DNA of 64,000 nt from a bacterium (GTDB taxonomy: Bacteria; UBA8248), in contig OZ242260.1 in assembly GCA_965207065.1 (NCBI GenBank), positions 2,810,017-2,874,016 of the forward strand, read 5' to 3'. The notes under the pieces were generated by a model. That model was given only the letters and a program-made list of their open reading frames with translations, did no database searches and had not been told where the DNA came from. Of the stretch, positions 1 to 63,984 are shown one piece after another. The stretch's first letter is position 1. The number at the start of each line of letters is the position of its first letter. The translations under genes were made by a program, and so were the position numbers.

Positions 1-86
1 AAAAAATCCGCCATGTTTTGGCTAGCGTATTCAAATGATCGTGAGGGGAGGCGGGAGGCGCTTCCCGGGATCGAAGGGGGGGGAGA

Positions 87-16187: not shown

Positions 16188-17258
16188 TTATTTCGGCAAC
16201 TCGGGGGCCTTGACTTCGGGGAGGTCGCCCGTGAGCGCGCCCATGAAGGCGATCAGGTCCGCTTTTTCGGTCTTCGTGAGCTTCAGGGGCTTCATGTCCG
16301 GGTCAAGATGGGGGTTCGGATGGCCACCTTCCTCATAGAAATCGACCACTTCCTCCAGCGTGGCGAAGCGGCCGTCGTGCATGTAGGGCGCTGTCTGGGT
16401 GATGTGGCGAAGCGTGGGCGTCTTGAACTTGCCCCGGTCCTTTATTTTCCGGGTGATTTTCTCCCTTCCAACCTGCAAAGGCTTCTTGTCCATCCCGACG
16501 CCTAAGTTGTGGAACTTGTCGTCCGTGAAGGGTGCGCTGAACTCATCCACCAGGTGGCATTTCACGCAATTGCCCTTTTTCATGAAAACCTCGAATCCCC
16601 TGATCGCCCGGGGCGATAGCGCTGACTCATCGCCTCCGTATTTCCAGCGGTCGAAGGGGGAATTTCCTGAGAGCAGGGTGCGCTCGAAGGTGGCGATGGC
16701 CTGAACCACGCGCTCGAGACTGACCCCGGGACTCCCGAATGCCTCATTGAACCGCGCGCGGTATTCGGGGATTGCGCCGAGCGTTTTGATAATCCTCGCC
16801 TCATTGGATGCCATTTCGCTCGGATGGAGGATGGGCCCCCTGGCCTGCTCCTCGAGGCTCGCGGCGCGCCCGTCCCAGAAGTGGGTTTCGTTGTAGGCGG
16901 CGTTGATGACCGTGGGGACGTTCCGGAGCGTGAGCCTGCCGTCAAAGCCCGTACCGTACTGGCGCGCATTCGAGAATCCGCGCCGGGGCATGTGGCAGGT
17001 CGCGCAGGAGACCTTCCCGTCGCCGGAGTAGCGTTTTTCGAAGTAGAGCATCTTGCCGAGTTCGATCTTGGGCCGCGTCATGGGGTTGTCATCGGGCACG
17101 GGAACGTCGTCGAGGCCCAGGGGAGGTTCCGGGGGGAGTTCCACTTGCGGGCGCCCATCCTGCGCGTGCGCCGGTGGCGCAGGCATCCACCCGAGCGCCG
17201 GGATCAGGAGACACAGCGCCGCGATCTGCGCGAGGTGATATATGGACTTTCTCTTCAA
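16188..17258 (-). CDS. di-heme cytochrome c peroxidase (CcpA/MauG family)
   Basis: Two heme motifs CATCH and CVKCH; CCP-family conserved stretches (FSGDGKVSCATCH, ETHFWDGRAASLEEQA, KTPTLR, APYMHDG). Confidence 0.85.
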   Translation of the reverse strand: MKRKSIYHLAQIAALCLLIPALGWMPAPPAHAQDGRPQVELPPEPPLGLDDVPVPDDNPMTRPKIELGKMLYFEKRYSGDGKVSCATCHMPRRGFSNARQYGTGFDGRLTLRNVPTVINAAYNETHFWDGRAASLEEQARGPILHPSEMASNEARIIKTLGAIPEYRARFNEAFGSPGVSLERVVQAIATFERTLLSGNSPFDRWKYGGDESALSPRAIRGFEVFMKKGNCVKCHLVDEFSAPFTDDKFHNLGVGMDKKPLQVGREKITRKIKDRGKFKTPTLRHITQTAPYMHDGRFATLEEVVDFYEEGGHPNPHLDPDMKPLKLTKTEKADLIAFMGALTGDLPEVKAPELPK

Positions 17259-21838: not shown

Positions 21839-22171
21839 GGGTCAATCCCTCAGAAAATCCGTAACTGAATGGCGGCGGAAGCGGATACCCCTGCGGGGGG
21901 AATGACGAATACGCCCCGGACAGGTCGCGACCTGTCCCTACAATTCAAGAGAGACTGCCTATTCCTCGCTCCACGCCTTCTCGTACTTCGCCCGGTGCTC
22001 TTTTGGCAGCGGGGAGGCGAAATACGATATCCCGACGAAGAGCACCGTGTTCACCAGCAGGCCGAAGAAGCCCGGCAACGTCCCGTCTCGGTAAAACCAC
22101 GATCCGTGCAAACCCACACGCCCTTGCATGCGACCTGTTCATGGACTATATTCAGTCCACAGGAGGCGGCC

Positions 22172-37355: not shown

Positions 37356-37530
37356 TATTATGCTTCATAGTTTTATCGAATGGAACTACTTGCGGGAATG
37401 TATTTATTCAATTCCCCCAAAAGTTTGCTTTCATTATTGATTGTAATCTCGAATACGAATGAGTTTAGGAGAACAAGATTTTATGTCCTCAGAATTTGAT
37501 GTGCGCTACGGTGAAGAGGTAGGAGACAAG

Positions 37531-38583
37531 ATGGAAGCGGTCGTGATGACCGCACCTGAAAATTTGGAAATACAGTCCGTTCCCGTTCCGGAACCGGGCA
37601 TCGGGGAAGTGCTCGTGAAAGTGGAATGCACCACGATTTGTGGTACAGACATAGAGATCATCAAAGGCGGTCACCTCCCCAACTGGCCGCCCCGGCTTCC
37701 GGCCATCCTGGGGCATGAATGGTCGGGCAGAATTGTGGCTATGGGCCCGATGACTGAGGGTTTCGGTCTCGGTATGGGTGATGCCGTGGCTGGGACGAGC
37801 CATGCTGGATGCGGTGCCTGTCGCATGTGCCTCATAGGCCGTTATAATCTCTGTTATAATTACGGGAATACAGTCACTGGTCATAGGCAGTACGGGCATA
37901 TCACGCAAGGCTCGTATGCGGAGTATGTCGTCAACAACATACGTGCGTTGCACAAAATGCCCGAGGGAATGTCGCTTGAGTATGGGTCGGCCGTGGACCC
38001 TGCTGCTTGCGGGCTCTGGACGGCGAAGCGTGCTGGCATCAATCCTGGCGATACGGTCGTGATATTGGGTTCCGGACCCATCGGTGTTTTTGCATATGAA
38101 TCCGTCAAGGCGATGGGCGCAGGACGCATAATCGTTGTGGGCGGTGGCAGGAGGCTCGAGATTCTAGAGGAACAAGGCGCTGAAGTTGTCAGTTACCGAG
38201 ATGGCGGTGTGCCGGAACGGATTGATGAGATGACCCGCGGGAAAAAAGCCAACGTCGTGCTGGAGACGGCTGGAACCACGGATAGCTTCAAATGGAGTGT
38301 GGATTGCGGCGGCAAAGGCGCGCGAGTCGCCATTACCGGCATACCGGACAACATTCCTGATATGGCATGGAAGCGCGTCGTGCTCGAGGAAATGGATATT
38401 TTTGGTGTTCGGGCGAATCCCAACTGTGGAGATGAAGTATTATCACTCATTCAAGCCGGCAGGATGAATGTGGACCCATACATTACTCATCGGTTCCCCC
38501 TCAGAGAATACCAAGAAGCGCACGATACGTTTGTGGCTCGAAAAGATGGCGCTTTGTTGGTGAACCTGACTCCTGGAGCATAA
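37531..38583 (+). CDS. zinc-dependent alcohol dehydrogenase (MDR family)
   Basis: Zn-ligand region CTTICGTDIEI, structural-Zn Cys cluster (CGACRMCLIGRYNLC), Rossmann GSGPIG; start set to MEAVVM. Confidence 0.85.
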   Translation: MEAVVMTAPENLEIQSVPVPEPGIGEVLVKVECTTICGTDIEIIKGGHLPNWPPRLPAILGHEWSGRIVAMGPMTEGFGLGMGDAVAGTSHAGCGACRMCLIGRYNLCYNYGNTVTGHRQYGHITQGSYAEYVVNNIRALHKMPEGMSLEYGSAVDPAACGLWTAKRAGINPGDTVVILGSGPIGVFAYESVKAMGAGRIIVVGGGRRLEILEEQGAEVVSYRDGGVPERIDEMTRGKKANVVLETAGTTDSFKWSVDCGGKGARVAITGIPDNIPDMAWKRVVLEEMDIFGVRANPNCGDEVLSLIQAGRMNVDPYITHRFPLREYQEAHDTFVARKDGALLVNLTPGA

Positions 38584-38588
38584 CGACA

Positions 38589-38990
38589 ATGTCTCAAGGC
38601 GAGATGAAATATGGCGCGAAGATGATTGCGGAGGCGAAGCTCGAAGCCGTTCCGAATCCATCAATGCAGCGCGATTACGTTGTAGATTTCACCATTCCCG
38701 AATTCACTTGTCTTTGCCCGCTCAGTAATTTTCCCGACTTCGCCACAATTCGCATCAAATACGTTCCTGGTGAAATGATAGTGGAGTTGAAATCCTTAAA
38801 ACTCTACATCAATAATTACAGGGACCGGGAAATATTTCATGAACAGGTGGTCAGCACCATCCTTGACGACTTGGTTGAGGTTTGCGCGCCGAAATGGGTG
38901 TGGATTGAAGGGGATTTTAACGTTAGAGGAAATATAAAAACAAAAATTCGAGCCACGCATGGTGTGAGACCACCAGATATTCCGGAATAG
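38589..38990 (+). CDS. queF: NADPH-dependent 7-cyano-7-deazaguanine reductase
   Basis: QueF motif E(S/L)K(S/A)hK(L/Y)(Y/F/W) present as ELKSLKLY; catalytic Cys context EFTCLCPLSNFPDFA. Confidence 0.85.
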   Translation: MSQGEMKYGAKMIAEAKLEAVPNPSMQRDYVVDFTIPEFTCLCPLSNFPDFATIRIKYVPGEMIVELKSLKLYINNYRDREIFHEQVVSTILDDLVEVCAPKWVWIEGDFNVRGNIKTKIRATHGVRPPDIPE

Positions 38991-39089
38991 ACGAATCGCT
39001 GATCAACTTGTAACGTTGCTCGGTGCAAAACAACTAACTTATAGTACTTAACATTAAACCCGATGAATTAAGCCATATTTCTCAATGAG

Positions 39090-41345
39090 GTGGAAATGAC
39101 AGACTATAAAGTCGCGGGCATGGGCCTTACACGAATCGATGCACCTGACAAAGTAGCTGGCAGTGCAAAATATGCGGCTGACGTTCCATCGAGCCGTTCA
39201 CTCATCGGTCTAGTCTTGGGTAGTCCGCATCCGTATGCGAAAGTACTGAGCGTAGATGCGAGTGAGGCGCGTAAGATACCTGGCGTCCGGGCAGTCGTGA
39301 CGCGAGATGACGCCCCCCGCATTCGATTCGGCGCCAACATCAAAGATCAGAGTTGGTTTGCGCAGGATGGCTTTGTTCGATATGGCGGAGAACCTGTGGC
39401 TGCTGTGGCCGCCGAAGATATGGATGCCGCTCAAGCGGCAATTGAATCGATTCAGGTGGACTATGAAGTTTTAGAGCCAGTGGTAAACGGCTTGGACAGC
39501 CGGGCAGGCGAGGGTCTTGCCGTCCACGAAGATTGGCAAGATTTGGGACTTGGCCCGAATGCAGACAAAAACATTATCGCCCGATTTGAAAAAGAAATTG
39601 GAAATGTCGACGCCGGATACAAAGAGGCGGATCGCATTTTTGAGCACACATTTTCTACACCATTCGTACATGCCGGCTATATTGAGCCTCACGCTTGCGT
39701 TGCCGAGGCAGGTGCAGACGGAAAAGTCACAATCTGGACAACCACGCAGGATGCATGGTCCATCCGGGCGGACGTGGCTGAGGCGCTTGGCCTCCCGGCA
39801 ACTCATGTTCGAGTCATTCCTACTGAAATCGGCGGTGGGTTTGGCGCTAAGCTAAAGAGTACTTATGAGCACCTAGCCGCTCTTTTGGCTTTGAAAACTG
39901 ACCAGTCTGTGCGCATGGAGATGACGCGCGAGGAAGATCATATCGGGGTGAATCCGAGACACCCGCATTTCATTACGATCCGCACAGCGGTGAAGAATGA
40001 TGGTACATTTGTCGCTCGGGAGCTTGATGTCACGATGGATCATGGCGCCTATGGCCGAGGCGCACCGTTTCAATGCAGTAGCAAGATGCTGATGGGTTCA
40101 TGCTCGTATCGTATCCCCAACGTTAGGATTCGTGCTTGTACGGTATATACCAATGGCCCCGTTTGTGGTCCCGTGCGTGCTCCCAGCGGTCCCCAGTACC
40201 ACTTTGCCACTGAAGTGCAGATGGACATCATCGCGCGCGAGATGGGGATTGACCCACTCGAGATAAGGCGAATTAATTCCCTTCGGCCTGGAGATGAGAC
40301 GCTGGCTGGGAAGGAGCCGGCTCCGTCCATGCGTAGTGTGCTTGACTCAACTGCCGTGGAAGGCATGTGGGGAAAGAAAATTGAGGCTAACGGAGAGCTC
40401 GAGGGAGATGGCTGGAAGCTCGGCCGCGGCATAGCTTGCGGATATTGGCCGGGTCCTGGGGAGGCGTCTAGTTGCACGGTTCGCCTGAATCAAGACGGCA
40501 CCGTACAAGTGGTAGCGGGAACGGTGAACCTTACGGGTATGAGCACTTCCATATGCCAACTTGCCGCAGAGGAATTGGGCGTTAGTTTGGATGAAGTGCG
40601 GTACACGAACGGAGATACAGATTCGGTTCCCGAATCATCGGCGGCGTCAGGCAGTAAGGCGACGCGCGCGGTTGGAATGGCAACTTTGAGTGCCGCCCGT
40701 GATTTGCGGAACAAAATCTTGAATGTGGCGAGTATAAAACTCGAAGCCGCTGCGGATGATCTGGTTTTGGAAGATGGACAAGTCAAAGTGGCTTCAGCGC
40801 CCGACCGAGCTATGTCTCTTGCACAGGTGGCCAAGGCGGCGCCTGAAATTCAGGGATTTTTAATCGGACAAGGTGAAAGCGCAAAGCCTCCCCCATGTCC
40901 GATACATACCGGACAGGTGGCGGATGTAGCCGTGAATCCGGAGCTTGGTGAGGTCAGGGTTTTGCGCCTTACATGCGTGCAGGACGTGGGATTTGCCATA
41001 AACCCATTGTCCGTGGTGGGACAAATTGAAGGCGCCATGCTCCAGGGACTCGGATTGGCCCTCATGGAAGAGCAACCCAGGCGCCCGGATGGTAATTTGC
41101 ATGGCGATACCTTCCATGAATATCTGATACCTACCAGCATGGATATGCCTGAATTGAATGCCGTTTTGTATGATAACCCGGCCGAGGGTACGCCCTATGG
41201 GATGCGAGGCGTGGGTGAACCGCCCATTGTGGCGACTGCGGCGGCGATTGTGAATGCCATTCAAGACGCTGTTGGTACACCAGTTTTCTCATTACCTGTT
41301 GGCCCGCATCATATTCGAGAGGCTCTGGCTACGAACAGCGTATAA
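39090..41345 (+). CDS. xanthine dehydrogenase/aldehyde oxidase family molybdopterin-binding subunit
   Basis: 751 aa; a/b hammerhead plus MoCo-binding domains (PHACVAEAG, GGGFGAK, GVGEPPIVATAAAI); no adjacent 2Fe-2S or FAD subunit genes. Confidence 0.85.
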   Translation: MEMTDYKVAGMGLTRIDAPDKVAGSAKYAADVPSSRSLIGLVLGSPHPYAKVLSVDASEARKIPGVRAVVTRDDAPRIRFGANIKDQSWFAQDGFVRYGGEPVAAVAAEDMDAAQAAIESIQVDYEVLEPVVNGLDSRAGEGLAVHEDWQDLGLGPNADKNIIARFEKEIGNVDAGYKEADRIFEHTFSTPFVHAGYIEPHACVAEAGADGKVTIWTTTQDAWSIRADVAEALGLPATHVRVIPTEIGGGFGAKLKSTYEHLAALLALKTDQSVRMEMTREEDHIGVNPRHPHFITIRTAVKNDGTFVARELDVTMDHGAYGRGAPFQCSSKMLMGSCSYRIPNVRIRACTVYTNGPVCGPVRAPSGPQYHFATEVQMDIIAREMGIDPLEIRRINSLRPGDETLAGKEPAPSMRSVLDSTAVEGMWGKKIEANGELEGDGWKLGRGIACGYWPGPGEASSCTVRLNQDGTVQVVAGTVNLTGMSTSICQLAAEELGVSLDEVRYTNGDTDSVPESSAASGSKATRAVGMATLSAARDLRNKILNVASIKLEAAADDLVLEDGQVKVASAPDRAMSLAQVAKAAPEIQGFLIGQGESAKPPPCPIHTGQVADVAVNPELGEVRVLRLTCVQDVGFAINPLSVVGQIEGAMLQGLGLALMEEQPRRPDGNLHGDTFHEYLIPTSMDMPELNAVLYDNPAEGTPYGMRGVGEPPIVATAAAIVNAIQDAVGTPVFSLPVGPHHIREALATNSV

Positions 41346-41376
41346 ATCACACCCGATACTTATCAAGGAGAATCCA

Positions 41377-42042
41377 ATGCCTGTAGACGAAGGAACAAGT
41401 TTGCCGGATAGTTTGGGCGTGACCGATGAGATGATGGCATGTCCTTTACCAAGGTTGCCTTTCGTTGATCCTGACAATGTTCCCGACGAACTCAAGGAAG
41501 AACTCGCTCCGCTCTACGATTGGTCGAAACGGATGTGGGGCACTGTCCCACGCTTTTTACAGCTTTTGGGAAATTCACCCCCTACTGTGGAAGGATGGAT
41601 GTTGCTCGACCAGAAGCTCCGTACGAATCGATTGAAAACGGAGTCCGATTACATTCGACTCATGGAACTGGTCATCGTCAAAACGGCCATTTTGACAGAG
41701 TGCAACAACTGAATCGGGCACAATGTGGAGCTCGGTCGAGCTCTGGGTCTTACGCAGGATCAAATCAACATGTTGGAAGGCGATGATTGGAATGAAAGTG
41801 ATTTGTTCGATGACAAGGAGAAAGCCGTTATCCGTTGGGCGGATGAAGTATCGAAGTTCAGAGCGAAGAACAATGACTTCGCATTCAATGAGATGAAAAA
41901 ATATTTCTCCAATCGGCAGATCGTGGAACTCACTTTTATTTGTGGGATGTGGCATCTTTCGGGAAGACTGGCCGAGGCGCTCCACCTGGTTGTGGAACCA
42001 CCGGGAGGGCGCATCGAATTTCAGGCAGAAGACATGGCGTAA
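41377..42042 (+). CDS. carboxymuconolactone decarboxylase/AhpD-like protein with in-frame UGA (probable selenocysteine) at 41710-41712
   Basis: Track ORFs 41254..41712 and 41725..42042 are in the same frame, separated only by TGA; joined sequence ELVIVKTAILTECNN-U-IGHNVELGRALGLT matches the CMD catalytic Cx2Cx3H motif with U replacing the 2nd Cys; aaggag RBS before ATG 41377. Confidence 0.65.
41726..41745 (+). promoter_or_regulatory. SECIS-like hairpin 14 nt downstream of the in-frame UGA
   Basis: ug-GAGCUC-GGUC-GAGCUC-ug: 6-bp GC-rich stem extendable by two G-U pairs, GGUC tetraloop. Confidence 0.4.
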
Positions 42043-42546: not shown

Positions 42547-42570
42547 CATCCAACAGGAGAAAATGATTCA

Positions 42571-42605
42571 GCGCCCGGTTGAGATTTCAGCCGGGCGTTT
42601 TTTGT
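42571..42605 (+). terminator. Rho-independent terminator
   Basis: Stem CGCCCGG/CCGGGCG with 12-nt loop followed by TTTTTT. Confidence 0.7.
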
Positions 42606-42643: not shown

Positions 42644-43504
42644 TTGGAAGAAATTGTGATGGCGACAGACGAACTGACGATTCATCATGAAGACTTGCGT
42701 GGCCGCATTCTCTCAACGGATTCGATGACCTATTTTGACGAAAGGGTTGAAGAACGGGACGTTCTCATTGGAGGCTCTTACGCCGCACGCATGACGATGG
42801 CGTGGGCAATGCGCCTGGGTGCGAGGGCAATCGTTGCCCATGCGGCAGGAGTAGGAAAAGATGACGCGGGTATAAGCGGTCTCCGGTTGGCCCAGGAATA
42901 TCATGTGCCTGCATTGGCATGTGAGACAATGTCCGCAAGACTCGCCGTTGGAGTATCCGTTTATGAAGGCGAAGTCGGCCATGCGAATCAAGTGGCCCAA
43001 AGTCTCGGTGTTGAAATCGGTCAATCCATTGCTGAAGCTTCGAAAATTTTGCTCGATGCCGATGTGGGCCGGGAAGTGATTGTGGAGGAAAGCCTGGATG
43101 ATAGAATTTATGAGCTAGAGCATTTGCCTGATGGTAACATACGCGCTTCATGGGGAATTCCCGTCCTGCGTTCTATCCAGGAACCAAGGCCCCAAGATGT
43201 TTTTATCCAAGCCTCGCATTGCGGACTTACTCTCGTACCGCATGTCATGAAGCTTAATTTAAAGGGTGTTATTGCCAATGATGCAGGACGGGGGAAAGAT
43301 GACTCCGGCATCGCATCTTTCCCCTACCTGGCGCGGGAGGGGATTGCGGTGGCGGCGGTCGGCGCCATGAGTGCGCGAATTGGTGATGTGATGAGCACCT
43401 GGCAGGAAGGCATTATTTCATGCATGAACGAAGTGGCGGAGAAGCGTGGGGTGCGAGAAGGCATGATGACGCGAGAGGCGGCTATCGCAATGCTCAATGC
43501 GTAG
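42644..43504 (+). CDS. hypothetical protein with internal duplication
   Basis: 286 aa; two homologous halves each containing A.G.GKDD(A/S)GI(S/A) (AAGVGKDDAGISGL / DAGRGKDDSGIASF); no family recognised. Confidence 0.5.
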   Translation: MEEIVMATDELTIHHEDLRGRILSTDSMTYFDERVEERDVLIGGSYAARMTMAWAMRLGARAIVAHAAGVGKDDAGISGLRLAQEYHVPALACETMSARLAVGVSVYEGEVGHANQVAQSLGVEIGQSIAEASKILLDADVGREVIVEESLDDRIYELEHLPDGNIRASWGIPVLRSIQEPRPQDVFIQASHCGLTLVPHVMKLNLKGVIANDAGRGKDDSGIASFPYLAREGIAVAAVGAMSARIGDVMSTWQEGIISCMNEVAEKRGVREGMMTREAAIAMLNA

Positions 43505-43953: not shown

Positions 43954-46900
43954 TCAAGAACATCCACTCGTCGCGCCACAAGTCATACATTTCAGGCACG
44001 TCCCGTTTCGCACTAAGGTGAACAAACCACAATCGCTGCAAGCTTCCCCCTCATACCCTTTCGCGCGGGCTTCTTCGATGCGTGAATCAATTGCGGAGCT
44101 TGCTTCCGTTATGGGTGTCATCGAAGTTTGGGTGGATTCTGTCTCATAATTCAGACTTATCCGGTCGCTGCGCGGTGCGCTTGCATCCGGTCCCGGGAAT
44201 ATGGTTTGAATCTCTTCTTCTTCCTCGGTATCGAATTCCGGAATCTCTTCCTGGGGGCGCCCGATGGTGTCGCTCCTCAAGTCCTCCGACACGACTTGCG
44301 CCAGGTCGTGGCGACCGAGATATGAAACCGCCAGTTCACGGAAGATGTAATCGATGATGGATGTGCTCATCTTGATGTGCGGGTTGCCCGAGACCATACC
44401 CCCCGGCTCGAATCGTGTGAATACGAAGGCATCCACGAATTCATCCAATGGGACGCCGTGTTGGAGCCCCAGCGAAATTGCGATGGCGAAACAATTCATG
44501 AGGCTTCTGAAGGCAGCGCCTTCTTTGTGCATATCTATGAAAATTTCGCCGATGGAGCCGTCCTCGTACTCACCGGTTCTAAGATATACCTTGTGACCGC
44601 CAATGACGGCTTTTTGTGTGTATCCACCGCGGCGGGTAGGCAACTTGCGTCTTCTGGACTGGTAAATGATCCGGCGCACAATCTGCTGGGCTACATGCAC
44701 GGGGGCACTTTGGGTAGCTGGTTCTTCTTCGCCGATATCACTGAAGAGTTCTGCTTCGCTTTGTGCGGAAAGTGGTTGGCTTAGTTTCGAGCCATCGCGG
44801 TAAATCGCTATGGCTTTGGTCATCCGCTGCCACGATTCGTTGTAGATGTCTAAAATATCTTGAATCGTTGATTCCGCGGGCATGTTGATGGTTTTGCTGA
44901 TGGCGCCAGATATGAAAGGCTGCGCCGCCGCCATCATTCGAACATGGGCCATGGGGCTGATGAAACGCTTGCCTTCTCGTCCGCATTTGCTCGCGCAATC
45001 AAAAACGGCTAGATGCTCTTCTTTTAGGTGGGGCGCCCCCTCAAGCGTCATTTTCCCGCAAACGAAATCATTCGCTTCGCTGATTTGTTCTGGAGTGAAA
45101 CCAATGGCTTCGAGCAGATTCAGGTTCCAGTCGGCTATTTGCGCTTCGCTGAGCCCTAATTGCTCAATGCAGAAGTCATCACCGAGGGAATGTTTGTTGA
45201 AGGCGAACTGGATTTCAAACGCCCCTTCGAGAGCAGCTTCCACTTTTTCCAGAGCCTTGCTCGTAAACCCTTTCTCGTGCAAAGACTCTGGATTGATATG
45301 AGGAGCATTCGTGAGGGTCCCCCGCCCTCGGCAGTAGGCGACGATTTCGCGGATCTCTTCATCGTCATAGCCTAGATGCCGCAAGGCAGCGGGAACGGAT
45401 TGGTTGATGATCTTGAAATAACCGCCTCCGGCCAGTTTTTTGAATTTCACCAAAGCAAAATCCGGCTCGATTCCCGTTGTGTCACAATCCATCACCAAAC
45501 CAATTGTGCCTGTCGGCGCGATGACAGTGGCTTGTGCGTTCCGGTAGCCGTTTCGATAGCCGATGGCCAAAGCATCATCCCACGCCTCACGCGCCGCTTG
45601 GAGAAGATAATGGGGGCAGATTTCCGCAGCGATTCCTGCTGGTGCCTTCGAGAGCATTTCGTATTCTGCCTCCGGCACAGAATAAGCTGCGCGGCGGTGG
45701 TTTCTCAGAACCCGCAACATGTGCTCTTGGTTGTCCTGATACCTTGAGAAAGCGCCCATTTCCCCTGCCATCTCGGCGCTGGTGGCATACGAGCAGCCGG
45801 TCATGATGGAGGTGAGAGCGCCGCACCATGCTTCCGCTTCAAGTGAGTCGTAAGGGATGCCAAGAACCATTAACAAGGTGCCCAGATTGGCGTACCCAAG
45901 TCCTAAAGTTCGATACTCGAATGAGCGTTTGGCTATTTCCGGACTGGGGAATTGCGCCATCAGTACTGAAATTTCGAGGACGACTGTCCATAGGCGAATA
46001 ACATGACGATAGTCTTCTATCTGAAAGTGGTTTTTTTCAGTATCCAAGAATTTTATGAGATTCATCGACGCTAGATTGCATGCGGTATCATCCAAGAACA
46101 TGTATTCTGAGCAAGGATTAGAGCCGTTGATGCGACCATCGGCGGTGCACGTGTGCCAGTCGTTGATGGTTGTGTCAAATTGAAGGCCAGGGTCTGCGCA
46201 ACACCACGCTGCATATCCAATCTGATTCCAAAGTTCTTTCGAACTGACGGAGTCCGCGATTTCGCCGTCAGTGCGCCGTATCAGGTTCCAATCCGAGTTT
46301 TTCTCGGTAGCTTCCATAAAATCATCTGAAACGCGGATGGAATTGTTCGAGTTTTGACCGGAAACCGAGATGTAGGCCTCGCCTTCCCAATTTGTATCGA
46401 GCTCTTCGAACTCGATTTCGGTGATGCCTTGACGTGCAAGTTGGAGAGTCCGATGGATATAATTATCCGGAACGCCGGCGAGTCTTGCGGCCCGAATTGC
46501 TTTGGTGAGTGATGGGTTTTTATCCGGCTGGTACAAGTTGCCATTCAAGCTCAGGTTCTTTCCTTCCAGGCAAGCCCCGAGAATGGCGTTCATGTGCCGG
46601 TTGCACATCTTGCTGCCCGAAACCAGGGCGGCCACTTTCTGTTCTTCGTGCACCTTCCAGTTGATGAATTCCTCGATGTCGGGGTGGTCGATGTCGAGCG
46701 TGACCATTTTCGCCGCGCGCCGAGTGGTGCCGCCCGACTTGATCGCGCCCGCGGCGCGATCCCCAATCTTGAGGAAACTCATGAGGCCGGAGCTTCTTCC
46801 ACCTCCTGAGAGAGATTCCCCCTCCGCTCTCAAATTCGAGAAATTCGTGCCGGTGCCCGAGCCGTATTTGAAAATGCGCGCCTCGCGCGTCCATAAATTC

Positions 46901-47550
46901 ATGATCCCGCCCTCGTTGACGAGATCATCTTTCACCGATTGGATGAAGCACGCATGCGGTTGAGGACGCTCATAGGCGTTGGTGGAGCGGAGTATTTCCC
47001 CGCTTTCGGGATCGCAATAAAAATGTCCCTGGGCGGGGCGCGTGATGCCGTAGGCCCAGTGCAGGCCCGTATTGAACCACTGTGGCGAGTTGGGGGCCGC
47101 CATCTGGCTCGCTAGTATGTATAAAAGCTCCTCATAGAACGCTTTGGCGTCTTTTTCCGCGTGAAAATAACCGTGTTTCCAGCCCCAATAGGTCCAGCAT
47201 CCCGCCAGGCGATGGAAAACGTCCCGGGCGTCGCGCTCGCTTCCGAATCGCTCATCCTCGGGCAGGGACTCAAGTTTTTCCGTGTCCGGCTCCGAGCGCT
47301 GCAGCCATTCGGGCACTCCCTCTTCGGAAACTTTGTTTAAATGTGTGGGGACGCCGGCTTTTCGGAAGTATTTTTGCGCTAGAATGTCGACGGCCACCTG
47401 AGACCAGCTCTCAGGCGCCATGATGTCCTTCGCTTCGAAGACGACCGAGCCGTCCGGGTTGGTGATGCGCGAGGTGCGCGGCGTGAAACCGACCTCGCCG
47501 TACGCGTCATCTCCGGCCCGGGTGAATCGCCTCGTAAACTCCACGCCCAT
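43954..47550 (-). CDS. nrdJ: adenosylcobalamin-dependent ribonucleotide reductase (class II)
   Basis: 1198 aa; class II RNR layout with Cys-rich C-terminal tail ([22 protein letters not shown]); ggagga RBS before ATG. Confidence 0.9.
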
Positions 47551-53549: not shown

Positions 53550-53577
53550 GTAGGGACAGGTCGCGACCTGTCCCTAC
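53550..53577. repeat. REP-like perfect palindrome gtagggacaggtcgcgacctgtccctac
   Basis: Same core as 21918-21941 (ggacaggtcgcgacctgtccctac); further palindromes follow to about 53720. Confidence 0.5.
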
Positions 53578-59768: not shown

Positions 59769-59814
59769 TGAAAGAGTTATAGTTCCACGTATGTGTTGAC
59801 ATGGAGCTACCCAG

Positions 59815-60654
59815 CTATTCGCCGGGCTGTTCCTTGTTTTTTTCGATGGCCGCCATCGCCAGTTCGCGGTCTTCGGGGTCTTCCACGCGGCGCGCGGTAT
59901 CGAGAGCGGCGTCGATTTGCCCCTCTTGCGCCTGCGCCAAGGCGATATCCCGGTAAGCCCAGGAGCGATATGGAGCTTTACCGATGCCGCTTGCGGAGTT
60001 GAGAGCGACGGGGAAATCTCCTGCGTTCGCCTGGACCGTCGCGATTTCCTGCAAGGCCCAGGAGCGCCAGGCAGGGTCGCCGATTTCACGGGCGTTCTGA
60101 ACGGCTGCGGTGAAATCCCCCGCCTCGGCCATGCCCATGACGCTTCGCCACGCATTTTCGGAAAGGCTTTTCTCGTCGCGGATCTCCTCGATCGCCTCCA
60201 GAGCGGCGTTCAGCGTGTGGGAGGCGATGGCGGCGGCGGGACCACTCTGGATGGCGGAGAAGTGCTTGAGCGCCTGCATTTGATCGTCGGGGTCGTCGAT
60301 GCGGCGTATCGTCTCGATGGCTTCGCTGATTTGTCCCGCCCTCGTCTGCGCAATGGCGATTTCACGCAAGGCGGAGGCGTAAAAAAGAGCGCTTCCGATG
60401 CCTCGCGCGGTCTCGATAGCGGCGTCGATATCCCCCGCCTGCGCCTGTGAGCCGGCGAGCTCACTCAGATGAATGGAGCGGTTGGTGATTTCGCTCAGGA
60501 ATCGCGAGATTTCGGCCTCGGGCGTGAGCTCCCGGCCGTCGAGCGTCTCCTCCCGGATTTCCGCGCTTTCCGGCAGGAAAGAAGCCGGAGGCTTCTCCTC
60601 GGCTTCGCTCGAATTCCCCATAAATCGCATCAAACTCCGAAAAATGTTTCTCAT
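59815..60654 (-). CDS. TPR-like helical repeat protein (tandem paralog 1)
   Basis: Repeated about 31-aa units (A..A..IGDP..RS.AL.EIA.AQA.AG); about 90% identical to 60968-61819. Confidence 0.6.
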   Translation of the reverse strand: MRNIFRSLMRFMGNSSEAEEKPPASFLPESAEIREETLDGRELTPEAEISRFLSEITNRSIHLSELAGSQAQAGDIDAAIETARGIGSALFYASALREIAIAQTRAGQISEAIETIRRIDDPDDQMQALKHFSAIQSGPAAAIASHTLNAALEAIEEIRDEKSLSENAWRSVMGMAEAGDFTAAVQNAREIGDPAWRSWALQEIATVQANAGDFPVALNSASGIGKAPYRSWAYRDIALAQAQEGQIDAALDTARRVEDPEDRELAMAAIEKNKEQPGE

Positions 60655-60967
60655 CTGGGTCCTCGTCTATCGGTATGAGAGATTTCATATTGAACGCGAT
60701 GTTTTTCCACAGGATTGATATCGTTAGCCTTGTTCTAAGCAGTCATTATCATCTCGTTTGTTTTGATTTGCAAAAGAAAAAGCACTCAAGAAGCCGAGAT
60801 TACGTATTATCGCCATAGATATTATATTGTAAATACCAATATTTATAGGATTACTATGAATCGAGGCTGATGCCGAACAGGCAGGGTCGGTGAGAATGCG
60901 CGCTCATCTTTGCTCCTCGATCGCCTCGGCGAAGCGCTCGGCGATGTCGGCGGCGCGGCTTGGCGCG

Positions 60968-61819
60968 CTATTTACCGGGTTGTTCCTTGTGTTTTTCGAT
61001 GGCGGCCATCGCCTGCTCGCGGTCTTCGGGGTCTTCCACGCGGCGCGCGGTGTCGAGAGCGGCCTCGATTTGCTCCTCTTGCGCCTGCGCCACGGCGATA
61101 TCCCGGTAAGCCCAGGAGCGGTACAGCGCCTTGCTGATGCCGCTTGCGGAGTTGAGAGCGGCGGGGAAATCTCCCGCCTGCGCCTGACCCGTCGCGATTT
61201 CCTGCAAGGCCCAGGAGCGCCAGGCAGGGTCGCCGATTTCACGGGCGTTCTGAACGGCTGCGGTGAAATCCCCCGCCTCGGCCAGGTCCATGACGCTTCG
61301 CCACGCATTTTCGGAAAGGCTTTTCTCGTCGCGGATCTCCTCGACCGCCTCCAGGGCGGCGTTGATCGCTTGGGAGGCGATGGCAGAGCCGGGACCACTC
61401 TGGATGGCGGAGAAGTGCTTGAGCGCCTGCATCTGATCGTCGGGATCGTCGATTCGGCGTATCGTCTCGATGGCTTCGCTGATTTGTCCCGCCCTCGCCT
61501 GAGCAATGGCGATTTCCCGCAAGGCGGAGGCGTAAAAAAGAGCGCTTCCGATGCCTCGCGCGGTCTCGATGGCGGCGTCGATATCCCCCGCCTGCGCCTG
61601 TGAGTGGGCGAGCTCGCTCAGATGAATGGAGCGGTTGGTGATTTCGCTCAGGAATCGCGTGGTTTCGGCCACGGGCGTGAGCTCCCGGCCGTCGAGCGTC
61701 TCCTCCCGGATTTCCGCGCTTTCCGGCAGGAAAGAAGCCGGAGGCTTCTCCTCGGCTTCGGGCGAAACCCCCATGAATCTCATCAAACTCCGGAGTATGT
61801 TTCTCATCCGGGTCCTCAA
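60968..61819 (-). CDS. TPR-like helical repeat protein (tandem paralog 2)
   Basis: Same architecture; N-terminus MRNI(F/L)RSLMRFMG shared, upstream sequence partly shared. Confidence 0.6.
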   Translation of the reverse strand: MRTRMRNILRSLMRFMGVSPEAEEKPPASFLPESAEIREETLDGRELTPVAETTRFLSEITNRSIHLSELAHSQAQAGDIDAAIETARGIGSALFYASALREIAIAQARAGQISEAIETIRRIDDPDDQMQALKHFSAIQSGPGSAIASQAINAALEAVEEIRDEKSLSENAWRSVMDLAEAGDFTAAVQNAREIGDPAWRSWALQEIATGQAQAGDFPAALNSASGISKALYRSWAYRDIAVAQAQEEQIEAALDTARRVEDPEDREQAMAAIEKHKEQPGK

Positions 61820-62052
61820 TTATCCCTTGCTGGATTATTCACCTTGATTCAAACTGATCGTCCATACAAGGTTCATGTGATTGTGTCGCACTGTGAAAAT
61901 ATTATCTTCGCATTCGCTTTATTTTGCAAAAAAAAAGCACTCGAACAACTGGAATTATTGATAGTTGCCACGAGAATGGCGGGGAAAGCAAAAAATGAAA
62001 GGAAAAACAGGTCCGATGCCTCGTTCGGCAGGACGGGAAACTCGCGCGGCTC

Positions 62053-63984
62053 CTACTCCTCTATCGCCTCGGCGACGAGTTCGGCGATGTCGGCGGCGCG
62101 GATGTTCTTCTCCGGGTCGAGCGTCTTGAGAGCGTCATCGAACATCTGCATGCAGAAAGGACACGAGACGGCGGCGGTTTCGGCCCCGCATGCCTTCACG
62201 TCCTCGAGCCGCTCGTGGTTGATGCGCTTTTTGGGGTCATCGTCCATCCATGCGTAGCCGCCGCCCGCGCCGCAGCAAAGCGAGCGCGAGCGGTTGCGCG
62301 CGAGCTCGGTGAAGCCGCCGTCGGATATCTGGTGCAGCACCTCGCGCGGGGCGTCGTACACGCCGTTGTGGCGGCCCAGGTAGCAGGGGTCGTGGTAGGT
62401 GATGGAGCCGAGCGATTTCTTGAGCTTGAGTTTTCCTGATTTTATGAGTTCCGCGATGAGCTGCGTGTGGTGCACCACCTCGTAGTTTCCCCCGAAGTCG
62501 GGGTATTCGTTCTTGTACGTGTTGAAGCAATGCGGGCAGGTGGTGATGATTTTCTTCACCTCATAGCCGTTCAGCGTCTCGATGTTCTGTTTCGCGCACA
62601 TCTGGAAGGTGAACTCGCCCCCGGCCCGACGGGCGGGGTCGCCTGTGCAGACCTCCTCCGCGCCCAGGATGGCGAAGTCCACGCCCGCGGCTGAGAGTAT
62701 CTTCACCATCGCCCGCGACACCTCGATGTTGCGGTCGATCATCGAACCCGTACAGCCCACCCAGTAGAGATATTCCGCCTTCTCTCCGCTTGCGAGGACT
62801 TTCACGTCGAGGCCCTCGTACCATTCCTCGCGGTTGTGTTGCGCGCCCACCCAGGGGTGTTGCCGCTCGTCCATCGACTTCAGGAACTGGCGCGCGTCCT
62901 CGCTCGTTTTGGATTCCATCATCACCAGGTAGCGCCGCATGTCCACCATCTTGGGGATGTGCTCGATGAATACCGGGCACTCCTGCTGGCAGGCCCCGCA
63001 GGTGCGGCAGCCCCAGAGTTCTTCTTCCAGGACGGCGGGTTCGTCCCCGGGCTCGCCGAACAGGGGCGTCCTCTCGCCGGCTTCACCGTTTTCCGCGAGC
63101 GCCGCCGGGCCCGTCTCGCTCAGGTGCGTCTTCATGTCCTGGATCAGCTTTTTGGGGCTGAGCGGCACCCCGCTCATGTAGGCGGGGCAGACGTCCTGGC
63201 AGCGGCCGCAGTTCGTACACGCGTCCAGATCCAGCAGGTTTTTCCAGGTGTACCCCTCGATCTTCTCCACCCCCAGGGTTTCCAGCGCCTCGGGGTCCGC
63301 TTCCATCGTCGCCTCGATGTCGATGAAGCTCAGCTTGCCGCTCGACTCCAGATTTCTGCAGAACATGTTCAACAGGCCGTACCAGATGTGGTTGAACTTC
63401 CCGAAGCCCATGTAGCCGAGCAGGACGAACGCAGTAATGGCGTGGAACCACCAGTTGATGCGGTGGAGGAACCGGAGCGTCTCGAGGCTCAGCCCCTGGA
63501 GAGTCAGGGCGACCGCGTAGCCGCCCGGCGACCACGGGGCCAGGGCCGGGTTGTGTCTGAGTTCGGTTGCCGCGATGCGCAGCCCTTCCACGACGAAGCC
63601 CTGCACGAAAACGAGCAGGAGCAGCCACAGCGCGAGGTAGTCGTCGAGCACGGAGTTCATGCGCTCGGGCTTCATCACCAGGCGCCGCCAGAGGGCCATG
63701 AGTATTCCGACGATCCCCAACAGCCCGAAGCCGTCGCTGAGCAGCGAGTAGCCCAGGTAGAGGTTTCCCTTGAGATAGTGGATTCCCGTCCATTCCTGAA
63801 CGGCGATCATCGAAGTGGCGATCAGTTCGACGAAAAAGCCGTAGAAGATGAACAGGTGCATGAGGCCGGGGTAGGTGTCCCGCAGCATCCGTCGGTGGAG
63901 CACCAGCTCATCCACAACCCCCCAGAGGCGTTTCACCGGTTTGTCGGTTCTCATTTCGCCGCCGCCCAGGCGCCACAACCTCAC
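62053..63984 (-). CDS. membrane-anchored Fe-S oxidoreductase (N-terminal NarI-like membrane domain fused to HdrD/DsrK-like 4Fe-4S + CCG domains)
   Basis: N-terminal multi-TM region; ferredoxin motifs CTNCGRCQDVCP and CRTCGACQQECP; two Cys-rich CCG-type segments (CTGDP...TTCPHC, CCGAGGGY...CPFC). Confidence 0.8.
   Translation of the reverse strand: MRLWRLGGGEMRTDKPVKRLWGVVDELVLHRRMLRDTYPGLMHLFIFYGFFVELIATSMIAVQEWTGIHYLKGNLYLGYSLLSDGFGLLGIVGILMALWRRLVMKPERMNSVLDDYLALWLLLLVFVQGFVVEGLRIAATELRHNPALAPWSPGGYAVALTLQGLSLETLRFLHRINWWFHAITAFVLLGYMGFGKFNHIWYGLLNMFCRNLESSGKLSFIDIEATMEADPEALETLGVEKIEGYTWKNLLDLDACTNCGRCQDVCPAYMSGVPLSPKKLIQDMKTHLSETGPAALAENGEAGERTPLFGEPGDEPAVLEEELWGCRTCGACQQECPVFIEHIPKMVDMRRYLVMMESKTSEDARQFLKSMDERQHPWVGAQHNREEWYEGLDVKVLASGEKAEYLYWVGCTGSMIDRNIEVSRAMVKILSAAGVDFAILGAEEVCTGDPARRAGGEFTFQMCAKQNIETLNGYEVKKIITTCPHCFNTYKNEYPDFGGNYEVVHHTQLIAELIKSGKLKLKKSLGSITYHDPCYLGRHNGVYDAPREVLHQISDGGFTELARNRSRSLCCGAGGGYAWMDDDPKKRINHERLEDVKACGAETAAVSCPFCMQMFDDALKTLDPEKNIRAADIAELVAEAIEE

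Follow-up and report, generated by a model that had tools for sequence, protein, structure and literature searches.

A probable AhpD-like selenoprotein gene with a conserved SECIS-like hairpin past its in-frame UGA in a Nitrospinota genome

Introduction

AhpD-like selenoproteins, which carry selenocysteine (Sec) in a CxxU motif, entered the literature with a 2005 analysis of the Sargasso Sea, in which 27 sequences were assigned to COG2128 (PMC1088965). By the time of the 2008 GOS survey, AhpD-like proteins ranked as the fourth most abundant selenoprotein family, with 299 sequences in the group AhpD-like 1 and 70 in the group AhpD-like 2 (PF02627) (PMC2398784). Reviews from 2022 and 2026 still list an 'AhpD-like protein, COG2128 (YciW)/TIGR01926, CxxU'. 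The initial annotation of the locus described below, made from its sequence, had called AhpD-like selenoproteins a reported family, and both surveys and the later reviews bear this out.

Two Cys enzymes of the same fold provide points of reference. In AhpD of Mycobacterium tuberculosis, the second active-site cysteine, Cys133, cross-links to Cys61 of AhpC, and Cys130 is partly buried (PMC6626918). The tetrabromopyrrole debrominase Bmp8 (PDB 6ohi/6ohj), also of the CMD/AhpD fold, relies on redox-active thiols and is described as acting through the oxidation of Cys residues to a disulfide (PMC5577590).

Here we describe a locus within a 64-kb stretch of DNA that was analysed as a whole (the window), and to which all coordinates refer; homologous loci are designated by L numbers. 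Positions 41377-42042 very probably constitute one gene for a 221-residue AhpD-like selenoprotein (COG2128/YciW-related, CMD fold), with decoding of its UGA directed by a SECIS element. The product is like the established family (COG2128/YciW, CxxU; 'AhpD-like 1') in its CMD/AhpD fold, in having Sec for the second Cys, in the existence of Cys homologs, and in the placement of a bacterial SECIS directly past the UGA, although it scores below the cutoffs of the family's NCBIfam models, TIGR01926 and NF053654. Its assignment to that family was made by published description (fold, motif, SECIS placement, Cys homologs) rather than by comparison with the representative MCB9421940.1. With the CMD-like, or 'AhpD-like 2', selenoproteins it shares the CxxU motif and a PF02627 match just above the gathering score. 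The marginal nature of that Pfam match, together with a chain of roughly 220 aa that has an additional region at its N-terminus, sets it apart from this second group and places it nearer the TIGR01926/YciW type.

Results

A single UGA interrupts one reading frame

The features of the gene are as follows.

41377..42042, + strand: AhpD-like selenoprotein coding sequence, 221 codons including one probable Sec codon; stop codon TAA at 42040-42042
41365..41370, + strand: Shine-Dalgarno-like AAGGAG, read from the sequence, 6 nt 5' of the start codon
41701..41703, + strand: TGC codon for Cys109, residue 1 of the C-N-N-U motif
41710..41712, + strand: in-frame UGA, proposed Sec codon for residue 112; a nearly invariant Cys column in homologs, TGA in 26/26 loci

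The open reading frames 41254..41712 and 41725..42042 share a common frame, and the TGA at 41710-41712 is the sole interruption between them, confirming the arrangement from which the initial annotation had started. The true start is ATG 41377; the upstream gene runs to 41345, and the start at 41254 falls within its 3' end. The span first proposed, 41377-42042, proves to be exactly that of the gene, from this ATG to the TAA. Across the stop the peptide reads ...ELVIVKTAILTECNN-U-IGHNVELGRALG..., or, with a longer flank on the N-terminal side, ...LMELVIVKTAILTECNN-[UGA]-IGHNVELGRALG....

Gene callers split the gene, as had been anticipated, into products of 111 aa and 105 aa in every assembly seen, and at least three more independent assemblies (ENA, Logan) show the same pair. 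A relative about 85% identical in nucleotide sequence, L001, keeps both the TGA and the hairpin described below, with synonymous changes on both sides. L001 lies on a contig of 2x coverage and carries a 1-nt homopolymer insertion inside the gene. Another copy, L002, is a 5'-truncated remnant with TGG (Trp) at the UGA codon.

The UGA column among homologs

A scan of GTDB species-representative genomes found 27 loci, all but one of which are full length. TGA stands at the identical column in every one of the 26, which come from four phyla: Nitrospinota (many of these sponge-derived MAGs), Candidatus Tectomicrobia, Rhodospirillales, and Acidimicrobiales. Among these loci protein identity is 55-100%, nucleotide identity is roughly 70-98% where alignment is possible, and no further stops or frameshifts occur. 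The motif is C-N-N-U in 24 loci and S-D-Y-U, with Ser for the first Cys, in the other two. Several genomes, including that of Nitrospinae bacterium bin107, also encode a second paralog, about 62% identical and likewise with a TGA.

The occurrence of the same split in independent assemblies, its retention in L001, and the 26 of 26 homologous loci show that the TGA is no sequencing artefact. More broadly, the chance that the TGA is a nonsense mutation or a sequencing or assembly error, leaving a pseudogene or an artefact, appears close to nil. The insertion in L001 and the truncation of L002 do demonstrate that errors and decay occur in public sequences, but the TGA recurs at one column across four phyla and in at least four independent assemblies from the same species, purifying selection is equal past the TGA, the frame is otherwise intact in all 26 loci, and the spread of protein identities among the loci excludes a single contaminating source.

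A search with the joined protein returned 16 full-length Cys-type homologs, of about 219 aa and 50-60% identity, and in all 16 the residue at the UGA column is Cys, as part of an N-C-x-G-H-N motif. The first motif Cys is present in only four of these; the remainder read S-I-N-C. Most Cys-type homologs can do without the first Cys, in keeping with an assignment of Sec to the attacking position.

Within a library comprising 1.84 billion representative proteins, only 37 clusters (50% identity) belong to the subfamily. Eight cluster representatives break off in C-x-x precisely where the query has residues 110-111, the mark left by gene callers that stop at the Sec-UGA. A full-length Sec-form protein of the subfamily was not found in a collection of 5.8 billion protein clusters.

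Selection continues past the UGA

Among close orthologs, pairwise differences at codon positions 1, 2, and 3 number 83, 28, and 464 before the UGA, and 58, 35, and 381 after it. The bias after the UGA indicates that the downstream half is translated in the same frame.

A rival reading has two separate genes in the region, one for a 111-aa N-terminal protein and one for a 105-aa protein started at GTG 41725. Gene callers annotate it so in every assembly seen, and this GTG, five codons past the TGA, is present both in the window and in the closest relatives. Elsewhere, however, the codon is GTC, GTA, GTT, TCG, or ATC, and in eight loci the first in-frame start comes 61 codons past the TGA; comparison of the 26 loci found no conserved restart codon after the TGA. 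Residues G114, H115, and N116, encoded between the UGA and GTG 41725, are invariant and align with the Cys-type homologs, full-length single-chain Cys homologs exist, and the modelled AhpD fold spans both halves. Two separate genes therefore are an extremely improbable reading. The initial annotation had allowed that close relatives might carry two independent functional ORFs; with no conserved restart and the same codon-position selection in both halves, the relatives show nothing of the kind.

A SECIS-like hairpin fixed at synonymous sites

The candidate decoding element is a single hairpin.

41726..41745, + strand: bacterial SECIS-like hairpin, identified by its fold, synonymous-site conservation, absence from Cys forms, and fdhF-like loop

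In its core, GAGCUC at 41728-41733 pairs with GAGCUC at 41738-41743 to give 6 bp (4 G-C and 2 A-U), closed by the apical loop GGUC at 41734-41737. The stem begins after a gap of 15 nt from the UGA, and the loop lies 21 nt past it. All of this is as the initial annotation described. Two wobble pairs, between 41726-27 and 41744-45, lengthen the stem. Bacterial SECIS elements have a published consensus of a small, G-containing apical loop about 16-37 nt from the UGA.

The folding energy of the hairpin is ordinary (z = -0.39 versus shuffles), and stability was dropped as evidence on that ground. The significance of the hairpin instead rests on conservation. Codons +6 to +8 past the UGA are GAG or GGG, CTC, and GGT in the 26 Sec-form loci, with the Leu CTC and the Gly GGT of the hairpin fixed in 26/26 while GC content among the loci spans 37.6% to 71.5%; at other Gly and Leu codons of the same gene, the third position differs in 50-70% of pairs. 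The sole synonymous variation within the stem is CGA/CGG, which turns a U-A pair into U-G. Locus L022 shows a compensatory change from A-U to G-C (GGGCUC...GAGCCC), for which L027 represents the G-U intermediate. Over the set of loci, 91% of cells are paired, versus 16-58% in slid registers. Since the stem hardly varies, covariation lends it thin support, with double-sided change at only two of its pairs.

Cys-type genes are unable to form the hairpin. In one of them, L035, the peptide V-E-L-G-R is kept, but its codons differ (GAA CUG GGC CGU) and the hairpin is absent. Rfam gave no matching SECIS family; a gathering search of the whole window and a permissive search of 41600-41900 yielded tRNAs and chance matches only.

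The hairpin is like the SECIS of Escherichia coli fdhF, the sequence of which was checked against 5,419 E. coli genomes, in its position within the coding sequence right past the UGA, its short G+C-rich stem, and its GGUC loop. Unlike in fdhF, the loop is at +25..28 from the U of the UGA rather than +22..25, one codon further, the stem has another sequence, and no bulged U is evident.

Genetic code and selenocysteine machinery

TGA is the stop codon of 6 of the 23 Pfam-confirmed genes in the window, so the genetic code is standard. Within the 64-kb window, ARAGORN found tRNA-Asp and tRNA-Ala only, with no tRNA-Sec, and Pfam recognized SelA, SelB, or SelD in none of about 35 of the larger window proteins. 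In a search for other selenoprotein genes of the window, a crude read-through list and a screen for UGA plus hairpin produced, besides the present gene, only off-frame-looking peptides.

The window is 98.5% identical in nucleotide sequence to MPNJ01000001.1 of Nitrospinae bacterium bin107, and the AhpD-like protein is 100% identical. Evidence for the machinery comes from published tables for that genome rather than from the window's own record. Table S4 of Slaby et al. 2017 lists two SelA, one SelB, and one SelD for bin107, and the same study reports none of the three for free-living Nitrospina gracilis (PMC5649159). The initial annotation had named a genome devoid of Sec machinery as grounds for abandoning the selenoprotein reading, and SelA, SelB, and SelD are on record for this close match. 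BSepDB, in 2026, classes bin107 (GTDB UBA8248) as Sec-utilizing and credits it with 48 selenoprotein genes, which puts it among the ten richest bacteria; the database admits a genome only if two or more Sec-pathway genes are present, and its method is tblastn with all known families, followed by iteration (PMC13326102). By virtue of this method, the present gene is likely among the 48.

Read-through of the UGA without Sec, by a near-cognate Trp or Cys tRNA or under a reassigned code, might be suggested by the TGG of L002 and by the want of a tRNA-Sec in the window. It is nevertheless very unlikely. TGA ends confirmed genes in the same window, the homologs have Cys rather than Trp at the column, L002 is a truncated remnant, an fdhF-type GGUC hairpin is conserved only in the TGA forms, and SelA, SelB, SelD, and 48 selenoproteins have been reported for the genome (bin107).

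Fold, family, and active site

The joined product matches the Pfam CMD model PF02627 over residues 95-157, spanning the UGA, at 23.8 bits against a cutoff of 23. The initial annotation had proposed an alignment to this model and a check for Cys at the TGA column of Cys-containing homologs; the Cys is there. Scores of 45.7 bits for NCBIfam NF053654 (YciW-related selenoprotein; cutoff 310 bits) and 33.4 bits for TIGR01926 (peroxid_rel, peroxidase-related enzyme; cutoff 81.8 bits) place the protein outside both models. Since these scores fall well below the cutoffs, the gene product, judged by sequence comparison, is assigned to a divergent subfamily of the AhpD-like selenoprotein family. Four homologs bear the JGI name 'alkylhydroperoxidase family enzyme'.

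A profile search of the PDB returned AhpD/CMD proteins only, among them 2gmy (2e-15), PA0269, 2oyo, and the Deinococcus radiodurans AhpD 6k40, and in the family profile the Sec column falls on the second Cys of the CxxC found in solved proteins with the CMD/AhpD fold. For the CxxC homolog P0003, 54% identical, AlphaFold gives an all-helical model (pLDDT 87, pTM 0.84) that has the redox motif at a helix N-terminus and finds AhpD/CMD-fold chains in all 37 of its significant Foldseek matches. On this model, the AhpD fold spans both halves of the gene product.

The subfamily motif is K-T-x5-C-N-N-U-x-G-H-N. The protein is like AhpD of M. tuberculosis (Glu118...Cys130-x-x-Cys133-x-x-x-His137) in fold family, in the position of the motif at a helix N-terminus, and in the alignment of Sec with Cys133. 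It is unlike that enzyme in that Sec takes the place of Cys, the His is at +3, the Glu is either E or Q, and no ahpC is adjacent. Compared with solved AhpDs, sequence identity is about 16-20%, and the product here is monomer-sized, at 221 aa. The initial annotation had recognized the CMD catalytic segment E...CxxCxxxH. Alignment of CxxU with it stands, but the His is found at +3 (C-x-x-U-x-x-H-N) rather than +4, with Asn116 in the canonical His column, and at position 97, which corresponds to the upstream Glu, 14 of the 26 Sec forms have E and the other 12 have Q. The canonical proton relay of AhpD, Glu...CxxCxxxH, in which the Glu is invariant and the His stands at +4, thus is not reproduced. 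Because its spacing and its invariant Glu are not kept, the biochemical role of the protein is uncertain.

The TGA had been assigned, in addition, to the resolving Cys of the catalytic CxxC. It does fall at the second Cys column, but in M. tuberculosis AhpD it is this second Cys, Cys133, that attacks Cys61 of AhpC, so Sec replaces the attacking Cys rather than the resolving one. Cys109 is the probable resolving partner of Sec112. Placement of Sec at the attacking residue is usual for selenoenzymes.

A conserved gene neighborhood

The genes upstream and the hairpin downstream are these.

37459..38583, + strand: gene of the Zn-dependent alcohol dehydrogenase family (ADH_N, ADH_zinc_N), first of the cluster; synteny in L001, L006-L012, L022, L027
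38589..38990, + strand: gene for a QueF-like protein of 133 aa (PF14489, 1.3e-33); synteny
39090..41345, + strand: molybdopterin-binding subunit of the xanthine-dehydrogenase/aldehyde-oxidase family (MoCoBD_1, MoCoBD_2, Ald_Xan_dh_C)
42570..42599, + strand: strong terminator-like hairpin, 13-bp stem then a T run; consensus match only

The gene for the Mo-binding subunit ends 31 nt 5' of the selenoprotein start, on the same strand. It sits directly upstream of the Sec gene in L001, L003-L015, and L022/L027 as well, with 62-99% amino acid identity; in distant carriers of the cluster, from Nitrospinota and Tectomicrobia, the identity is 62-74%. Carriers of the conserved cluster, in which the Mo-hydroxylase subunit is a stand-alone one, are sponge-associated Nitrospinota (UBA8248) and Tectomicrobia. 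The Sec gene probably is co-transcribed with the ADH, QueF-like, and Mo-hydroxylase subunit genes, and the hairpin at 42570..42599, going by its sequence, would likely mark the end of the transcription unit. The ADH/QueF-like/Mo-subunit order is absent around the second paralog and around the alphaproteobacterial and actinobacterial copies. Near the second paralog (L021) lie a BglII restriction-modification system and a GNAT gene, an uninformative setting. Annotated neighbors of the gene in the window comprise the ADH, QueF-like, and Mo-hydroxylase subunit genes, an RND efflux gene, and a class II RNR gene; there is no AhpC/Prx gene among the annotated window genes, a set that does not take in every small ORF.

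These surroundings bear on whether the protein, though a true selenoprotein, might serve in something other than AhpC-type peroxide defence: as a redox partner of the Mo-hydroxylase, QueF-like, and ADH proteins, or as a Sec-dependent dehalogenase like Bmp8. The order of the ADH, QueF-like, Mo-subunit, and Sec genes is kept across Nitrospinota and Tectomicrobia, the canonical AhpD relay is altered, AhpC/Prx is missing from the annotated neighbors, and Bmp8 (6ohi) appears among both profile and fold matches, all of which speak for such a role. We consider it rather unlikely even so, as the second paralog and the alphaproteobacterial and actinobacterial copies do without the neighborhood, and Bmp8, 14-15% identical, ranks below about 19 other AhpD-fold chains. 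Bmp8 differs also in being a Cys enzyme that belongs to the bmp biosynthetic cluster. The dehalogenase idea likens the protein to Bmp8 and to Sec-dependent deiodinases; brominated metabolites are abundant in the host sponge.

Discussion

The gene is very probably a genuine selenoprotein gene and an ordinary member of a family described since 2005. If UGA 41710 is decoded as we propose, translation would not terminate there; the GGUC hairpin 15 nt downstream would serve as the SECIS and recruit SelB-GTP-Sec-tRNA(Sec) to the ribosome, so that Sec would be inserted. We infer this insertion step from the sequence features together with the reported SelA, SelB, and SelD. The product would be an all-helical oxidoreductase of the AhpD fold, with Sec at a helix N-terminus in the position of the attacking Cys. 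There, the selenolate of Sec112 may attack an oxidised substrate or partner, whether a peroxide, a sulfenic acid, or a disulfide, to form a selenenylsulfide with Cys109 that would then be re-reduced. Redox chemistry between Sec112 and Cys109 is probable, by homology to characterized AhpD.

Family, motif, mechanism, and the selenoprotein richness of the genome have all been published already, and no concept is changed; at most, this is an uncatalogued member of a known family. The main value of the result is a correction of annotation, as split gene calls yield two meaningless fragments. With Sec-form genes split and no full-length entry available, the redox proteome of sponge symbionts is under-described. 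The locus also offers a teaching case for Sec detection: Sec pairs with Cys in homologs, synonymous sites keep the SECIS fixed across loci of 38-72% GC, and Cys-type genes provide a control.

A more specific suggestion is that the Sec protein acts within the conserved cluster, either protecting the Mo enzyme or serving as its redox relay, or else as a Se-dependent dehalogenase of brominated metabolites from the host sponge. By analogy, this is conceivable, but we hold it to be distinctly unlikely. Bmp8 shows that the AhpD/CMD fold is capable of thiol-based reductive dehalogenation, and a link from there to a sponge rich in bromometabolites is speculation. If true, a role as Mo-enzyme partner or as dehalogenase would be new for the AhpD-like selenoprotein family. 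The conserved link to Mo-hydroxylase, QueF-like, and ADH genes provides a testable lead on the physiological role of AhpD-like selenoproteins.

Genomic context of the selenoprotein gene

The AhpD-like selenoprotein gene lies immediately after a cluster encoding a zinc-dependent alcohol dehydrogenase (Zn-ADH), a QueF-like protein of 133 aa and a molybdenum (Mo) subunit of the xanthine dehydrogenase family. Features of the region are as follows.

16188-17258, minus strand, di-haem cytochrome c peroxidase
37459-41345, Zn-ADH, QueF-like protein and Mo subunit cluster
41377-42042, plus strand, AhpD-like selenoprotein
42644-43504, plus strand, 286-aa ORF directly downstream of the selenoprotein gene
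43954-47550, minus strand, class II (B12-dependent) ribonucleotide reductase with TSCPD domain, 1198 aa
59815-60654 and 60968-61819, minus strand, two paralogous TPR-like repeat proteins
62053-63984, minus strand, CCG/4Fe-4S/NarI-like fusion protein (HdrD/DsrK-like)

The order Zn-ADH, QueF-like protein, Mo subunit, selenoprotein is kept in Nitrospinota and Tectomicrobia. The Mo subunit stands alone, with neither an FAD nor a 2Fe-2S subunit gene next to it; ten CoxL homologs have been reported in Nitrospinae bacterium bin107. The 286-aa ORF had no match in Pfam, and is found at 85-99% identity in every close relative (L001 and L003-L011). The ribonucleotide reductase, the peroxidase and the CCG/4Fe-4S/NarI-like fusion are redox-related genes near the selenoprotein.

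Elsewhere in the window, a unit of about 1150 bp, containing periodic 99-nt repeats, is duplicated in tandem at 59814-62110, with 92% identity between copies across the first 300 nt; this duplication encodes the TPR-like proteins. A perfect 20-nt palindrome, GGACAGGTCGCGACCTGTCC, occurs in identical copies at 21918-21937 and 53554-53573, both intergenic and 31 kb apart (chance expectation 0.01), the latter within a 15-bp stem. It may be a REP-like or terminator element.

Variant copies and a second paralog

L002 (Logan SRR27730035, 365-811) is a GC-rich, 5'-truncated copy in which TGG (Trp) replaces the TGA codon, yet its 16-nt SECIS core is retained without a change; decay of the gene or a chimeric assembly is the probable explanation. 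At L001 (10001-10670 of a 2x-coverage contig, ENA ERZ25071132), a 1-nt insertion in a run of C, probably an assembly error, frameshifts the N-terminal half, so that the protein predicted by the gene caller, P0019, runs past the TGA in a different reading frame.

Several genomes with the selenoprotein gene, bin107 among them, also encode a second AhpD-like paralog (L020, L021, L023, L025, L026, L028, L029 and L031) of 216 aa and about 62% identity, with TGA at the identical column and the same hairpin. In bin107 this paralog (L021, MPNJ01000003.1) does not neighbour the Mo cluster; a BglII-type restriction-modification pair lies there instead, together with a GNAT gene.

Selenocysteine forms lacking the first cysteine

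In two MAGs, ODZ_NOB7a and PW3.concoct.202 (L022 and L027), S-D-Y-U replaces C-N-N-U, so that selenocysteine (Sec) is present without the first Cys, mirroring the Cys-type homologs with S-I-N-C. Judged from this motif, a one-residue Sec mechanism would appear to exist within the AhpD-like family.
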